A stretch of 64,000 nucleotides of DNA from an uncultured virus (IMG/VR IMGVR_UViG_3300042366_001473) (lineage: Duplodnaviria; Heunggongvirae; Uroviricota; Caudoviricetes): the IMG/VR virus record IMGVR_UViG_3300042366_001473; one strand, 5' to 3'. Each line of letters begins with the position of its first letter. Position 1 is the first letter of the stretch. Of this stretch, positions 53,541-60,369 are shown piece after piece. The notes beneath the pieces were generated by a model, which worked only from the letters and a program-made list of their open reading frames with translations, was not told the origin of the DNA and ran no database searches. A program made the translations under genes and the position numbers.

Positions 53541-55337
53541 TTATGCTGTTGGTGTAGCACCTGTGGCACTGGCTGGGACTACGCCGCCGGGGCCTCCTGG
53601 CGCAGCGGCCGCATCAACTCCGGGTGTGCCCGGTGTGCCCGGTTCCATGCCGGCCATGTCAGCACCTGTTTCAATGTCACTTTCGAGCCCGCCAGGTGTG
53701 ATACCCACACTGCGAAGATCCTGTCCAGAGTTGGTCTGCATCTCTGGTTGATCGCGTTCTTCTTGCCACATTTCTTCGTTTTCTTTGATTTCGTCTTCTG
53801 TGAGGCCAAGATAGCGTTTGAGCAAGAATCGTTTGCTCATGTAGGGCAGTTGTTCCAGGCTTGTAAATGCTCCAATACGTGTGGTATCCAGTTCGGCTTG
53901 ACGATAGCTAGCAAAGTTCTGTGGCGGATTGAATTTTAGCGTGAACAAACTGGAATCAATGTTGAAACCACGCCATTTCATGAACATCTTGAATTCATCG
54001 TCTAGCTTTTGTGCTATGTGTCCTTGCAGGCGCTCACAGTACTGGTTGAAACGATACTCTTGAATCAGTGCAGTGCCCACTTTGCCGTCGGCCATGCTGC
54101 GGTCTGAATCATCAGGACCTGTGGGCAAATAGCTAGATGGCACACGCAGACCACGAGCCATTTTGTTGTTGAAATACTTCAAGTCGTCGATTTCGCCCAG
54201 ATTTTGTCCGCCTGGCAAGGTTTCTACACTGCTGCCGCGACCGTCTTGAGTCTGGGGGAAAAAGTAATCTTCGTTGATGCTGAGCGGGTTGTAGCTGGCA
54301 TCCATCATGTTTTGTCCGCCGCCTGTGACAGTGGGGATTCGTCGCTGATGCATTTCGTTTTTTACACGTTCCACAAACTGCATGGCCAAGTGGCTGGGCA
54401 TGCTGCCCACGTCAATCTTGAAGATTCGTCGTTCAGGAGCACGGCTCACACGATAGATAAGAATACTGTCTTCCAGCAGTTCTTTTTGCTTGAATACCTT
54501 GTAGATCTGTTCCAGCACACTGCGTCCAAAAGGCCAAAATACGTCCAGTCCTTCGTTTAGGCTCATGTGCACCACGTGCTTGGCATCCAAGCAAGTTTCG
54601 TTCATGGCTGTCATGAAACGGCTGTTGCCCACGCCGCCACCTGTGCCACCGTTGGGCATGGTGTAGTTTGCACTGCCGCTGATGCTGCCGGTCACAGGGT
54701 TGGTCATGTAGTCTGTGGTGGTTTTTGCTGCCACAGTCATGTTTTGGAAATTGGGGTTGATGTCACGAATCACATACTGCTCGGGACGCTTGCCTTCGCT
54801 TTCGTTCACAATGATACGTGCAACCTTGCTCATGTCCACCCACATCATTTCAAATGTTTCTGGGTCACGCACAAAAACTTGATCACCGTACTTGATGGTG
54901 TTGCGGAACAGTTTGAAAATTCTGTTGTCTAGTTGATTGATTTTTACCCACTGCTGCAACTGTTTGCGAATGATGCTGACTTCGTTGTCTGTGGGCTTGT
55001 CTTTGTAATCTACTGCAAATGGTGTGCCATTGTCATCGTTGATCTGTGTGGAAAATTCAGCAATGATATCCAGGCATGCATTGATTTCTGAATCCATGTC
55101 CATGTTTTCGTACTGATTGTATCGTTCCACACGGTTGGGATGGCCTGAATAAACTTCGGGCAATCTGCTGGCATAGTTACGAAACACAAAGTCTGCAGGC
55201 ATACCGCCTGAGCCGTCGTTTTTTCCGTAGCCGGGCAGGCCGTATTGATTGGTGCCGCTGATGGGGCTCATCACGCCTGATGTGTCTGCTACTTTGAAGT
55301 ATTTGCGCCAGCCGCCGCTTGATCTAGGTTCTGCCAT
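53541..55337 (-). CDS. gp20: Portal protein gp20
   Basis: LEDSILIYRVSRAPERRIFKIDVG, EDYFFP, LPGGQNLGEIDDLKYF..K..RGLRVPSSYL. Confidence 0.97.
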   Translation of the reverse strand: MAEPRSSGGWRKYFKVADTSGVMSPISGTNQYGLPGYGKNDGSGGMPADFVFRNYASRLPEVYSGHPNRVERYNQYENMDMDSEINACLDIIAEFSTQINDDNGTPFAVDYKDKPTDNEVSIIRKQLQQWVKINQLDNRIFKLFRNTIKYGDQVFVRDPETFEMMWVDMSKVARIIVNESEGKRPEQYVIRDINPNFQNMTVAAKTTTDYMTNPVTGSISGSANYTMPNGGTGGGVGNSRFMTAMNETCLDAKHVVHMSLNEGLDVFWPFGRSVLEQIYKVFKQKELLEDSILIYRVSRAPERRIFKIDVGSMPSHLAMQFVERVKNEMHQRRIPTVTGGGQNMMDASYNPLSINEDYFFPQTQDGRGSSVETLPGGQNLGEIDDLKYFNNKMARGLRVPSSYLPTGPDDSDRSMADGKVGTALIQEYRFNQYCERLQGHIAQKLDDEFKMFMKWRGFNIDSSLFTLKFNPPQNFASYRQAELDTTRIGAFTSLEQLPYMSKRFLLKRYLGLTEDEIKENEEMWQEERDQPEMQTNSGQDLRSVGITPGGLESDIETGADMAGMEPGTPGTPGVDAAAAPGGPGGVVPASATGATPTA

Positions 55338-55353
55338 GGTGACTTATTTACCG

Positions 55354-58300
55354 TTAGTTTGATGCCAGCTGTGCCATTCTTTGACTGGCTACGGCTGTGG
55401 TCTGTTGACTACGAGACATGCTTTCCAACAACTGAATCATGCGTTGCTGAGATCCACTTTCTTTCATTATTTGGATAGAATCGACCAACTCTCGCATCAC
55501 CTGTGCCATTTCTTTTCGCATATCACTCATTTGCTGTTCCATGTTTTTGTTGGATAATACTAGTTCGTCCAGGGCAGGCATCATCACAGGCACAGCACCA
55601 TTTTTCAGCGGTATCACTGCTTCTTTGCCATGCAACACAGCAGGATATCCAGACATCGGGCCTTGGAACATGCCACCATCTTTGGCTTTGGGAACGTCTG
55701 TTAGTGCAGTCAACACTTCCTGACGACTAATAGTTGCTTTGTTAGTTCCAACCCCTCGATAATAACTCATTCCGTCGGCTAGCGGGAATCCTGCCCATAC
55801 TTGTGCAATAGCATCGGCCATTTGGTCTGCAGACATCTTGCCACTTTGAAATTTTGGCCAACCTTTTTCATTAAGCAATGCAATGGCCAGTTTGTCTTGT
55901 GTGCTTGGAGAAAATGTTTCGTTTGGGTTTACTACACCTCGAGTTAACAAGGTACGGAGTGTTTCTTGTATTATTTGATACTTTCCAACTGCTGTGCTCT
56001 CATGTCCTGCACGAACCATTTTACCTTGAAAATCCTGAACTTCTGCAATAGTCATATTGGTTAAGTCGGGGTTTATTTCTCCCCCAACCAATACGTTGTA
56101 GTTGCCGCGACTTTCTGCACGACCTATTAGGTCCAATATTTTAATAATAGATGCAGTAGGCTTTTCGGCTGTTGCTGGGTTTGCACCAGGTGGCATTGGT
56201 GGCAAAGGTGCAGGATTATTTGGGGTAGAACCCGGAGCAGCAGGCTTTGCAGCTGGTGCACTAGACGGAGCAGCAGGCTTTGCAGCTGGTGCACTAGACG
56301 GAGCAGCAGGCTTTGCAGCTGGTGCACTACCCGGAGCAGCAGGCTTTGCGGCTGGTGCACTACCCGGAGCAGACTTTGCGGCTGGTGCACTACCCGGAGC
56401 AGCAGGCGGTGTGGTGGTTGCTGGTGCACTACCTGGAGCAGCAGGCGGTGTGGTGGTTGCTGGTGCACTACCTGGAGCAGCACCTGATTTTGAACGTTTA
56501 TGTGCATCTTCAAGACGACGTCTATTTTCTTCAGCTTTTTTTCCTAGATCAGCAGCATTTTTTGCCTTGTCTGCATCATCCTTCTCTTTTTTCAATCTTT
56601 TAATTTCAGCTTCAGCTTTATCTTTTTCAACATTTGTCTTGGCCTCTGCTAGCTTTTTCTCTTGTTCTTTTATCTTGTCCCCGACCTCTTTAATTTTTGC
56701 ATCGGCCTGATCCACCTTGGCTTGTGCAGCCTCCGGCGTAGGCGGAAGACGCACACCTGATTCCACTGGTACGCCACCAAACGTGGGTGTTCCGCCAGGC
56801 ACAGGGTTTGCACCCACTGCTGAGCCAAAGATAGCAACTGCGTTTGCAAAAGCCTCGGATGCTGCTTTGTTGATATCTGCTGCAGAATTAAAGGTCGCAA
56901 TACCTTGTTCCATGATTTGTGCAGCAGCTTGCTGTGCACGACCTGCGCTGACCATTAGAGTAAGATCGCCGCCGGGCTGTTTGCGTTTCTTTTCTTCCTG
57001 TTTAAGGTAGTTAGTAATTGCTTCTGGACCTGTGAACCCTGCCTTGGCGGCTTCTTGTGCTAGTGCGTTTTGACGCTTGACAGAATTGTCCATGCCAACA
57101 ATACCTGTTTGCAATGCGTCAATGCCGCCGATCAATCGGTTGGTACCTGCCAATGACTGCAAATTAAGATCAGCATTTTTGGCCAGGTGTTCCAGGATCT
57201 GCTGATCAGTGATGTTGGGCTGAGCCAGTATTTCTGATATTCTGTAGGTTTGCTCTGCTGCTATTGCTTCTGGGGTGGTCAGTGCTCCTTGGCCTGCTGC
57301 CTGTTGCAAAATACCAAGAAAGCCTTTTTCGTCGCCTAGGCTTTTGGCAATAGCTGCTGCTCGTTCAGCAACTTTCAATTGAGCCATGTCTGCGGTATCG
57401 CCACGTTGCTGCGCATCTATCAAGGCTGCACGGAATCTAACTTCGGCCATTGCAGCTTCGCGTGCTTCTTGTTGTTCACGTCGGGTAGCGCCAGTGAGTT
57501 GTGCTGCTTGATCTAATTCGTGTACAAATCTAGCAGATTCTTCAATGAGTTTTTCAGTGTTCTTTAACTGCAGCTGGCCAGTTCTGGCCTGAATGCTCAT
57601 GTACAACAAAGCAGCTTCTCGCTGTTCTTGTTGAGTGATACCCATGATTTCAAACGTTTGGCCAATATCGCTTTTGACCAATGCACCCGAAACTTCAGCA
57701 AATCTCTTGGCTCCAACACCTGCTGTTCCGCCCAACAAGGCCAGTTGCTTGTTGTTTTTACTCAACATTTCTTGAAACTGCGCTGCATCCGCTGTGGTCA
57801 TGTTCAGCGTGTGCATTAGGTCCAGAGTGCCTTCTAGTCCACCAGTTAAACTAACACCTGCGCCGCTGGCGTCGTTGAAACTTTTTACCAGGGTGTCAAG
57901 CTGCTTGGCTCCTATCTCGTTGAATTTAAGTGCAGCTTTGCCAGCAGCTGATCCTAGCCCAAACACTGCTGCACCTGCCATTCTGGCACCACGAGTCAAT
58001 ATTCCAACAGGACCAGGAATAAAAGACAACACCGTCAGCAAAGTACCTATACTACTTGCTACGTTCAATATTGGTGTGGCAAAATCGTTGAGTGCTTTGG
58101 CAGACAGTTGCGCACCACGTTCACCATTGATCAAGCCTGATGCAAATGTGGTCAAAGATTTTGTGGTGCCGCTGAGACCAGCACTGAACAATTGTAGACC
58201 TGACTGTGCTGTTAAACTGTCTCCTCCAAGATTCAAGAACTTGTTTTTCAATATCTCAGCACTGCCCCCTGTGCTGCTCAATGAATCAAACAAATCTTTG

Positions 58301-58764
58301 CTGCTGCTAGAGGACCTACGGTTTTGTTCTATGCTTAGTTTGGTATTACGATTGCGTTGTTCTGCTTCGTACTTGGCTCTTTCTTTGTCTTCTTGCTCAC
58401 GTCCTTGCTGCGACAGATTGTTTCTACGAGTTGCTTCCTTAATTGCTTCTTCTCGAGCCTTGCTTTCTTTTTCCAAAGCATCAGTGACTTTTTGGCGTTC
58501 TTTGTTTTCTTCTTCTATGTTATCTGCAGTTTTTTCCACTGCTTTGGCAAACTTTTTGACAGCTTCTTCTTCGTCACGACGTGTCTTTTTGGTAGTATCC
58601 AATTTGACTGCTAGTTGACCCAGGGCCACAACCATTCGATCTACACCTCGAGTCATTTTGTCAGCAGGGCTGTCCACAGTTGCGCCAGGAGGTTTGCTCA
58701 TTCCTTGCAGCACCGGAATCAGTTGACGCATCTGTTCAACTAGGTCTCTTAATTCTTGATCCAT
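55354..58764 (-). CDS. Tape-measure-like protein with C-terminal lysozyme/lytic transglycosylase domain
   Basis: Long Ala-rich helical region; LDLIGRAESRGNYN...TAVGKYQII..TL...FSPSTQDKLA lysozyme-like motif; GG..GP..GY...LHGKEAVIPL. Confidence 0.75.
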   Translation of the reverse strand: MDQELRDLVEQMRQLIPVLQGMSKPPGATVDSPADKMTRGVDRMVVALGQLAVKLDTTKKTRRDEEEAVKKFAKAVEKTADNIEEENKERQKVTDALEKESKAREEAIKEATRRNNLSQQGREQEDKERAKYEAEQRNRNTKLSIEQNRRSSSSSKDLFDSLSSTGGSAEILKNKFLNLGGDSLTAQSGLQLFSAGLSGTTKSLTTFASGLINGERGAQLSAKALNDFATPILNVASSIGTLLTVLSFIPGPVGILTRGARMAGAAVFGLGSAAGKAALKFNEIGAKQLDTLVKSFNDASGAGVSLTGGLEGTLDLMHTLNMTTADAAQFQEMLSKNNKQLALLGGTAGVGAKRFAEVSGALVKSDIGQTFEIMGITQQEQREAALLYMSIQARTGQLQLKNTEKLIEESARFVHELDQAAQLTGATRREQQEAREAAMAEVRFRAALIDAQQRGDTADMAQLKVAERAAAIAKSLGDEKGFLGILQQAAGQGALTTPEAIAAEQTYRISEILAQPNITDQQILEHLAKNADLNLQSLAGTNRLIGGIDALQTGIVGMDNSVKRQNALAQEAAKAGFTGPEAITNYLKQEEKKRKQPGGDLTLMVSAGRAQQAAAQIMEQGIATFNSAADINKAASEAFANAVAIFGSAVGANPVPGGTPTFGGVPVESGVRLPPTPEAAQAKVDQADAKIKEVGDKIKEQEKKLAEAKTNVEKDKAEAEIKRLKKEKDDADKAKNAADLGKKAEENRRRLEDAHKRSKSGAAPGSAPATTTPPAAPGSAPATTTPPAAPGSAPAAKSAPGSAPAAKPAAPGSAPAAKPAAPSSAPAAKPAAPSSAPAAKPAAPGSTPNNPAPLPPMPPGANPATAEKPTASIIKILDLIGRAESRGNYNVLVGGEINPDLTNMTIAEVQDFQGKMVRAGHESTAVGKYQIIQETLRTLLTRGVVNPNETFSPSTQDKLAIALLNEKGWPKFQSGKMSADQMADAIAQVWAGFPLADGMSYYRGVGTNKATISRQEVLTALTDVPKAKDGGMFQGPMSGYPAVLHGKEAVIPLKNGAVPVMMPALDELVLSNKNMEQQMSDMRKEMAQVMRELVDSIQIMKESGSQQRMIQLLESMSRSQQTTAVASQRMAQLASN
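56232..56481. repeat. In-frame 30-bp and 39-bp tandem repeats encoding a Pro/Ala linker
   Basis: GGAGCAGCAGGCTTTGCAGCTGGTGCACTA-type units (SAPAAKPAAP) and SAPATTTPPAAPG x2. Confidence 0.9.
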
Positions 58765-58814: not shown

Positions 58815-59651
58815 ATGAATTCCAATCCCTTGAGTCAATACTTTAGGCAACCCGCTATCTTTATTCGGTTGCCCAGTCAGGGCAAATTTTACCCTGCCAA
58901 CGCCATTGAGCACACAGTCAACGGCGAATATCCTGTGTTACCCATGACCACCATGGACGAAATCACATATCGTACACCCGATGCCTTGTTCAATGGGCAA
59001 TCAGTGTGCAGTGTGATTGAGAGCTGTATTCCCAACATCAAAGATGCCTGGGCTGTGCCCAACGTTGATCTAGATACCATGCTGGTGGCCATACGCATTG
59101 CTACCTATGGCAACGATCTTGACATCAATTCTACCTGCCCTGGATGCGAAACAGAAACAGAATATACCATGAATCTCACACAGGTTCTCAGCAATATCCA
59201 GGGCATGGATTACTCACAAAGTTTGAAAATTGGAGATTTGGAAATTTATTTTCAACCCATGAGCTACAAACAAATGAATGAAAATTCACTGACTCAGTTT
59301 GAAGAACAACGTGCCCTGCAGTCCTTGACTGAGATGGATCCAGAAAACAAAGATCGTGTGAAACAGTTGTCCGACGTGCTGAAAAAAATCAACAATATCA
59401 CTACCCGAGCACTGGCTCAAAGTATTGCCCTGGTCAAGACACCCACTGCACAAGTTTCCAACGAAGAACACATTGCAGAATGGCTGGGCAACTGCGATCG
59501 CAACATGTTTGGCCAGATCAGAGATTTTATCATTGCCAACAAGCAAAAAAGTGAATTGCAACCCATGCACATTCAGTGCAGCAACTGTAATCATCAATAC
59601 GATCAACCATTTACCCTGAACATGACTGATTTTTTCGCGGGCGCCTCCTGA
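58815..59651 (+). CDS. gp26: Baseplate hub assembly protein gp26-like
   Basis: IRLPSQGKFYP, PMTTMDE, DLDTMLVAIRIATYG, CPGC, CSNC, terminal DFF. Confidence 0.8.
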   Translation: MNSNPLSQYFRQPAIFIRLPSQGKFYPANAIEHTVNGEYPVLPMTTMDEITYRTPDALFNGQSVCSVIESCIPNIKDAWAVPNVDLDTMLVAIRIATYGNDLDINSTCPGCETETEYTMNLTQVLSNIQGMDYSQSLKIGDLEIYFQPMSYKQMNENSLTQFEEQRALQSLTEMDPENKDRVKQLSDVLKKINNITTRALAQSIALVKTPTAQVSNEEHIAEWLGNCDRNMFGQIRDFIIANKQKSELQPMHIQCSNCNHQYDQPFTLNMTDFFAGAS

Positions 59652-59689
59652 TCCAAGACAACGAACAGGTTGTCAACACTGTTGATAAA

Positions 59690-59866
59690 ATGGAAAAGGA
59701 GGCCAAGCAGATCAAGGACGAAATGTTCAGGATTTGCTGGAGCATGCGTGGTGGTATCACTTTGGATCAAGCCATGCAGTTGAGTTATCGTGATCGAGAA
59801 AGCATTGCCGAATTGATCAAAAGCAATTTGGAAACAACCAAAAAATCTGGGCTGCCTTATTTTTAA
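59690..59866 (+). CDS. gp51-like baseplate hub assembly protein (58 aa from ATG; possibly made as a frameshift extension of gp26)
   Basis: MEKEAKQIKDEMFRICWSMRGGITLDQAMQLSYRDRESIAELIKSNLETTKKSGLPYF*; TAATG overlap with next gene; not in ORF track. Confidence 0.7.
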   Translation: MEKEAKQIKDEMFRICWSMRGGITLDQAMQLSYRDRESIAELIKSNLETTKKSGLPYF

Positions 59867-60369
59867 TGAACTTAGAAACTGTAAAACAAGACATAGAACG
59901 CTGGATTGTGAACTTTGTGGAAGTTCCGCATCCCGCCCTGGGAGGGTTTTCTCCGTGTCCGTATGCTCGCAGTGCAAGACTCAAAAATAGCTATCAGGTA
60001 TTCTTGGGCACTGACCCATACTATGATCTCAAACATCGTGCACGGCATGGTATAGGCCTCAGCGAAGTCATAATATATGCATACGATCCTGATCAATGGT
60101 CTCATGACCTGTTTGCCAGCAGCCTTGATCATGCCAACAAAGATTTTTTGTTGGCTGCTGATTTATTGGCCTTAGAAGATCATCCCAAAGATGTTGAAAT
60201 AGTCAACGGAGTTTGCATGAATCAAGGAACCTATGCACTGGCCTTGGTACAAAGTGTCAGCGACCTAAACACCAAGGCTCAGCTTATGGCACGCAAAGGA
60301 TTCTATGACACATGGCCTGAAGATTACTTGCAGTCCCTGTTTCAGCATCGTCAGGATCCGCGCACATGA
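59866..60369 (+). CDS. Hypothetical protein, DUF1415-like
   Basis: W...FV....L....PCPYAR N-terminus, EDHP motif. Confidence 0.5.
   Translation: MNLETVKQDIERWIVNFVEVPHPALGGFSPCPYARSARLKNSYQVFLGTDPYYDLKHRARHGIGLSEVIIYAYDPDQWSHDLFASSLDHANKDFLLAADLLALEDHPKDVEIVNGVCMNQGTYALALVQSVSDLNTKAQLMARKGFYDTWPEDYLQSLFQHRQDPRT

Follow-up and report, generated by a model that had tools for sequence, protein, structure and literature searches.

Comparison of homologous junctions gives strong support to a programmed -1 ribosomal frameshift at the 3′-end of the single PF12322 gene of this uncultured giant phage, a putative tail/baseplate-hub assembly chaperone gene. We assign this reading, which the initial annotation had put forward as probable, a probability of roughly 85%. 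The gene is found at 58815..59651 (+ strand) of the window, by which is meant the whole stretch of 64,000 nucleotides analyzed. The source record comprises 349,369 bases and is rated 97% complete, and one PF12322 gene is present in it.

Slip site and reading frames

The gp26-family gene encodes a protein of 278 amino acid residues, which is the short form and the equivalent of TAC-N. Its open reading frame ends in GAT TTT TTC GCG GGC GCC TCC TGA, and the slippery heptamer T TTT TTC noted by the initial annotation is present at 59630..59636 (+ strand), in the X XXY YYZ phase. The 0-frame stop follows four codons past the heptamer, at 59649-59651. Immediately 5′ of the heptamer the -1 frame contains a TGA (59627-59629), so that this frame opens exactly at the heptamer. 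It reads FFRGRLLIQDNEQVVNTVDK, remains open for 78 codons from the re-read Phe-Phe to the stop (59630..59866, + strand), passes into the ATG at 59690 and terminates at TAA 59864-59866; the open frame claimed from the heptamer into the downstream ORF is therefore confirmed. These codons constitute a C-terminal extension, of which gene callers recover only the last 58, from ATG 59690, as a 58-residue ORF (59690..59866, + strand). No GGAG-like Shine-Dalgarno sequence is found upstream of this ATG, and the stretch 3′ of the heptamer, GCGGGCGCCTCC, is GC-rich, both as originally described. The label “gp51-like” given to the small ORF is justified by position; its sequence shows no detectable homology to the tail of T4 gp51. 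The gene that follows, 59866-60369, has its ATG (59866) overlapped by the stop codon of the extension; it has a weak match to DUF6875 and matches phrog_28122. The overlap suggests translational coupling of this third gene to the pair.

Two products are predicted, a short form of 278 residues and a long form of about 350. In the proposed mechanism most ribosomes would read T TTT TTC in frame and terminate four codons on, yielding the short form. A fraction would pause at a hairpin starting 6 nt downstream; both Phe-tRNAs would slip back by one base, to TTT TTT, with translation going on for 76 more codons in the -1 frame to give the long form. The latter, with a C-terminal extension of four predicted helices, would have the role of T4 gp51 (TAC-NC) or lambda gpGT, and the short form would match T4 gp26 (TAC-N). 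The two products would thus share an N-terminal part, to which the long form adds a C-terminal domain. Slipping on the ribosome and the ratio of the two forms are both inferred. Both forms presumably chaperone the tape measure protein and the tail tube, a role suggested by the protein family and by published work.

Conservation of the slip site

A first sample of relatives consisted of 62 IMG/VR loci fetched with the 278-residue protein. The search for both parts of the gene covered the window, these loci and the GenBank sequences of Atu_ph07, PA5oct and Phosso. Fifty-six sequences, namely the window and 55 loci, contain a recognizable second part, which in 56/56 lies directly downstream in the -1 frame. 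Ten loci gave no match to the second part. The contigs of L005 and L058 end inside the gene, and those of L008 and L015 just past the heptamer, which is present in both; PA5oct is too diverged for tblastn, and the signal is present on direct reading. The remaining five, L061-L065, are weak matches and were excluded from every count. They belong to a 336-residue family, end in ...AGELL and have no slippery run. Their weak similarity to the gp26-like protein covers its residues 19-98 (33% identity, E about 1e-4); they may be distant in-frame relatives or unrelated.

After addition of 121Q, XaC1 and Xoo-sp13, this sample provided 42 distinct junctions of 132 nt. T TTT TTC is found in 41 of them and T TTT TTT in one (Xoo-sp13). 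Thirty-seven of the 42 align gapless, an alignment that omits the most divergent junctions (Phosso, XaC1, PA5oct, 121Q and Xoo-sp13); within it the heptamer and the next G are invariant columns, and column identity averages 67%. In Phosso and Xoo-sp13 the spacing to the conserved core of the extension is different as well.

The second sample contained 80 loci fetched through that conserved core. TTTTTTCG is present in all 61 distinct junctions that need a -1 shift. Six further distinct junctions have both parts in one frame, and the T run occurs in none of them; they read ACTTTCCG, CGTTTTCG, CAATTTAG, ATATTCCG, CAATTTCG and TATTTTCG. One truncated locus is unclear yet carries the run, and three loci are without a usable motif. 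Both samples together comprise 106 distinct junctions, 98 of which have TTTTTTCG where it is expected; since the loci are related, these are not to be counted as independent events. Eight junctions depart from this: the six in-frame types, Xoo-sp13 (T7) and Phosso, whose run lies one codon earlier; the last two are slippery variants. The seventh base is C in 98/100 slippery junctions, and the run never exceeds seven. Conservation of the heptamer and of the open -1 frame, which the initial annotation had proposed as a check, is thus seen in every frameshift-type relative examined. As judged from these alignments, an in-phase X XXY YYZ site has been maintained against synonymous change.

A predicted hairpin downstream of the heptamer

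The heptamer is followed by a 6-nt spacer (59637..59642, + strand) and then by a predicted stimulatory hairpin at 59643..59703 (+ strand), with an outer stem of 7 bp that pairs GCCUCCU (59643-59649) with AGGAGGC (59697-59703). Folding of 59637-59706 gave a minimum free energy of -23.9 kcal/mol (z -3.54), and one of 200 shuffles was as stable; the 143-nt context has a z of -3.17. The helix score of the window itself is reached by 21/200 shuffles. ATG 59690 sits in the loop, 5 nt before the 3′ arm. The two arms are CCUCC-like and AAGGAGG-like, resembling an anti-Shine-Dalgarno and a Shine-Dalgarno sequence, respectively.

Among the relatives the 5′ arm starts at a constant place (alignment columns 25-27), 5-7 nt past the heptamer, and the distance to the 3′ arm varies by clade. 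At 23 of the 37 junctions no more than 2/200 shuffles reach the uninterrupted anchored helix; three of the 37 (L053, L007 and L014) have no anchored helix better than shuffles. An anchored helix score of at least 19 is found at 63 of 96 distinct junctions versus 46 of 1152 control places in the same genes.

Three classes of helix can be recognized. They were drawn up from the best helices, and their members are related to one another; each of these points favours structure, and the following figures are to be read with that in mind. Class I (15 sequences) has 86.1% of its cells paired, four compensatory pairs and ten cells changed on both sides (0/500 shuffles), with slid controls at 23-58%. 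Class III (nine sequences) has 93.2% of cells paired, six compensatory pairs and 14 cells changed on both sides (0/500 shuffles), with slid controls at 37-53%. For class II, to which the window belongs (six sequences), the values are 85% of cells paired, two compensatory pairs in one lineage and four cells changed on both sides, with slid controls at 33-45%; covariation in this class is weak. The overall pattern points to a stimulatory structure downstream of the slip site, with covariation that is less marked in the window's own class.

The hairpin bears on the first alternative, in which the polymerase adds an extra U within the T6 run, bringing both parts into a single frame on some of the mRNAs, and the ribosome does not slip. 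The conserved element is indeed a homopolymeric T run, as transcriptional slippage would have it, but six T residues are short for slippage by RNA polymerase. Moreover, the conserved C at the seventh base and the limit of seven on the run fit re-pairing of tRNAs on X XXY YYZ better than a requirement for run length, and a covarying hairpin 5-7 nt downstream has the spacing typical of ribosomal stimulators. The title of the 2022 study on the T4 genes, as given in the part of PMC10274946 available, also concerns separate genes and not slippage. We therefore regard transcriptional slippage as very unlikely.

Codon choice and coding constraint

In the bodies of 38 distinct homologous genes Phe is encoded by TTT 314 times and by TTC 85 times (of 399). 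At the junction the two Phe codons are TTT then TTC in 38/38 genes. The codon before them ends in T in all 38 (AAT 27, AGT 7, GAT 3, ACT 1), and codons for the same residues in the gene bodies have T as third base in 31-69%. An in-phase T TTT TTY is found at the junction of each of the 38 genes and at just one other place across all of them. The run at the junction is accordingly more than chance or a conserved Phe-Phe.

Past the slip site the 0 frame has tails of differing sequence (AGAS, GAAS, DQAS, A, V, G, E and others); it ends 1, 4 or, in XaC1, 13 codons past Phe-Phe, and its residues are unconserved. The -1 frame, by comparison, keeps FFR-x-[RKT]-[LIV]-[LIV] (FFRxRLL) from its first codon. 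The invariant residues of the extension are F1, F2, R3, W37, M39, R40, G41 and N66, and nearly all relatives retain the length of 78 codons. To judge from these patterns, the coding constraint changes frame at the slip site.

A second, very improbable alternative involves two ordinary genes and no recoding, with the 58-residue ORF starting at ATG 59690 and the T run kept for the sake of Phe-Phe. This ATG exists, and an independent product of 58 residues may be made from it; gene callers report the protein, the matching codon is ATG in several relatives, although it is often another codon in other loci, and T4 gp26 also ends in Phe-Phe, without a slippery run. A T run kept for Phe-Phe is difficult to reconcile with the junctions, where the synonymous TTC TTC, TTC TTT and TTT TTT are unused save for one T TTT TTT, which is still slippery. 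A start at ATG 59690 is at odds with conservation at the amino acid level, which begins at the heptamer, 20 codons upstream of this ATG; whether it would begin upstream was the other comparison suggested at the outset. The first 30 codons of the extension, which precede the conserved core, contain no ATG at 21 of 40 loci whose extensions are distinct, and at 12 of the 40 they are free of ATG, GTG and TTG alike. Finally, homologues exist in which the two parts are fused in frame, and these are without the T run.

PA5oct (NC_071039) has a 75-codon -1 extension after its baseplate hub gene (L002:4834-5058), which contains no Met and carries no annotated feature; this conserved domain could not be made without a frameshift.

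The least credible alternative is termination at TGA 59649-59651 and reinitiation on a non-canonical codon (CTG 59648-59650 overlaps the stop, the window reading CTGA there) to give a separate protein of about 72 residues: an ATG or TTG does overlap the upstream stop in Phosso, Atu_ph07, P0020 and P0050, but residues upstream of the restart point (FFR-x-R-L) are conserved in the -1 frame, the 0-frame stop moves between the three positions given above as the heptamer stays in place, and the invariant heptamer and the fused homologues are left unexplained.

Protein family and structure

The 278-residue protein matches PF12322 (T4_baseplate) with 63.8 bits (cut-off 24.5; E 2.4e-17), residues 61-274 aligning with profile positions 42-218 of 219. 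It also matches phrog_150, “baseplate hub”, at 2.6e-17. The 58-residue ORF matched no Pfam or PHROG family. Its homologues carry no family on record, and the relatives of T4 gp51 carry PF28602, a family outside the Pfam set scanned, so that the scan of T4 gp51 itself gave no match to it.

A model of the short form has a pLDDT of 87.2 and a pTM of 0.82. The long form was modeled on P0138, a natural in-frame homologue used in place of the trans-frame protein of the window (pLDDT 91, pTM 0.87); its extension is predicted to consist of four helices, residues 266-341. Against BFVD this model gave 70 matches at E up to 0.001, the best at 7e-17, with names such as “baseplate hub assembly protein, T4-like,” “baseplate hub subunit,” and “baseplate hub assembly chaperone.” No solved chaperone fold was recovered from the PDB by Foldseek (best E 0.47), VIA-align wide returned generic helical hairpins only (Z about 8), and two profile searches of PDB sequences revealed nothing below E 0.7.

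The extension was also compared with the C-terminal part of T4 gp51. With hhalign, a profile of the extension gave a probability of 5% against T4 gp51, aligned to the wrong region, and a profile of the fused proteins gave 11% against the single T4 gp51 sequence. The phrog_150 match reaches the tail positions in one of seven fused homologues. A PHROG scan of 33 extension sequences yielded scattered weak families only, and a word-based search with the T4 gp51 tail returned three close T4 relatives, too few for a profile.

Fused homologues and gene duplication

A profile search with the extension recovered 490 proteins at E up to 0.001. Among the best 150 of these are about 20 proteins of 319-351 residues with the extension at their C-terminus, and PF12322 is present in all seven fused homologues tested. 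Alignment of the fused homologues with the short form of the window (probability 100%, E 2.3e-45) stops exactly at Phe-Phe; past this point the reading frame of the fused homologues goes on into the residues for which the window uses its -1 frame.

At four of the six in-frame loci a second, paralogous short N-type gene adjoins the fused gene. These four (L072, L073, L075 and L076, all from IMG/VR) have lost the T run, and the paralogue is directly beside the fused gene; L071 and L074, also from IMG/VR, have no second copy within 6 kb.

In T4 the genes 26 (208 aa) and 51 (249 aa) lie side by side in divergent orientation, and both products belong to PF12322 (215.6 and 177.5 bits, respectively) and phrog_150. 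T4 gp51 spans about 45 more profile positions than gp26 at the C-terminal end. The Phe-Phe at the end of gene 26 is encoded by TTC TTT, and the -1 frame of this gene is closed. Frameshift and duplicated gene thus alternate among the relatives. Loci with differing frames have the slip site, and it has been lost where the two parts are fused and the short form comes from a duplicate, a pattern which argues for selection on a set ratio between the short and the long chaperone.

Relation to known tail assembly chaperones

Tail assembly chaperones act in two forms, the short TAC-N and the long TAC-NC, and the TAC-N genes of T4-like phages are known to contain poly-T slippery sequences, according to the accessible part of PMC12846349; some T4-like phages have a short gene and a fused long gene in place of frameshifting, as stated in the text available from PMC10274946. 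The same two sources, so far as available, credit Vladimirov, Gautam and Davidson (Virology, 2022) with identifying gp26 as the short and gp51 as the long tail assembly chaperone in T4-like phages. The case in the window is a well-supported further example of a T4-like tail-chaperone frameshift already reported in 2022 and offers no new principle. The literature search, which drew on partial texts, retrieved no published report of this frameshift in giant phages; the “frameshift” in the accessible part of PMC7412058 refers to dnaX.

The gene of the window is of the same family as T4 gp26 and gp51 (PF12322, phrog_150), and both systems have a short form and a C-terminally extended long form. 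As in T4-like phages described in the available part of PMC12846349, the short gene carries a poly-T slip site at its end, and the two-gene alternative of T4 is seen likewise at the four in-frame loci with a paralogue. The window differs from T4 in lineage, belonging with giant phages of 290-490 kb (121Q, XaC1, Xoo-sp13, PA5oct, Atu_ph07 and Phosso) and their uncultured relatives, and in its extension, which has 76 residues compared with about 48 in T4 gp51 and did not align with it. The description of the source as a “T4-like phage” is accordingly correct for its structural genes, which are T4-like, but a 349-kb giant phage is not a classical T4-like one.

Xu, Hendrix and Duda reportedly described, in 2004, a conserved -1 frameshift in the genes for tail assembly chaperones of long-tailed phages. 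The gpG/gpGT pair of lambda resembles the window in that two products arise (here by prediction) from one gene through a -1 shift at X XXY YYZ near the end of the short frame, in the extra C-terminal domain of the long form, and in that the gene adjoins the tape measure gene (a probable one in the window). In contrast to lambda, where the gene is upstream on the same strand, the gene of the window is divergent from the tape-measure-like gene. Its short form, with 278 residues and CxxC pairs, is much larger than lambda gpG, and the searches described above found no sequence or fold similarity to solved chaperones. The gpE/gpE+E′ gene of P2 encodes the chaperone of a contractile-tail phage and undergoes a -1 frameshift on a T-rich slippery run. 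It has in common with the window a -1 frameshift (predicted for the latter), a T-rich run and a tail chaperone gene of a myovirus; the gpE family appears unrelated to that of the window in the searches run. The analogy drawn by the initial annotation between lambda G/GT and gp26/gp51-type genes fits the published literature.

A broader proposal can be advanced only tentatively, at somewhat under even odds. For giant T4-related phages (the lineages of 121Q, PA5oct and Atu_ph07 and hundreds of uncultured ones) the frameshifted gp26/gp51 pair may represent a state both ancestral and dominant, unannotated in all GenBank records examined. Its stimulator may be an unusual long-range hairpin with a 5′ arm fixed 5-7 nt after the slip site and a 3′ arm re-recruited about 40 to 85 nt away by clade, and lineages may have repeatedly swapped the frameshift for duplication, as in T4. 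The prevalence in giant phages and the hairpin would be new if Vladimirov 2022 covers neither these phages nor the hairpin.

T4-type phages were thought to be without the tail-chaperone frameshift of nearly all long-tailed phages, and this apparent exception is removed; a core structural gene of giant phages also gains a corrected annotation. The two arrangements, frameshift versus fused gene and duplicate, represent a natural experiment, and the combination of a fixed 5′ arm with a wandering 3′ arm offers a convenient system for studying the evolution of frameshift stimulators.

Genomic context and annotation in related phages

The closest named phages, at 28-32% identity, are the giant phages Phosso, Atu_ph07, PA5oct, 121Q, XaC1 and Xoo-sp13. 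There are 95 matching records, all at less than 60% identity. Six of these GenBank records were opened, and none has an annotated frameshift; the second ORF is a “hypothetical protein” in the five that annotate it and is uncalled in PA5oct. The pieces of the extension in GenBank are truncated, with 40 residues in Atu_ph07 (L001:4825-5052) and 52 in XaC1 (L068:3819-4034).

Adjacent to the chaperone gene, on the opposite strand, is a gene for a protein of 1136 residues (55354..58764, - strand), probably a tape measure protein with a lysozyme-like domain, followed by a T4 gp20-type portal gene (53541..55337, - strand; PF07230 at 4.6e-104). The nearest entries to the 1136-residue protein in a protein atlas are tape-measure clusters (0.90-0.91, 119 shared features), which we treat as a lead. 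Residues 850-1040 match lysozyme chains at E about 1e-3, and the syntenic gene in 121Q, XaC1 and PA5oct is annotated as “virion structural protein.” The divergent arrangement next to a tape-measure gene claimed for the pair is therefore correct as to adjacency and orientation, and the identity of the neighbour as tape measure comes from these leads. Just before its lysozyme-like domain the protein contains Pro/Ala/Ser-rich tandem repeats (window 56100-56520), with units such as APGSAPAAKPA and PAAPGSAPATTTP.
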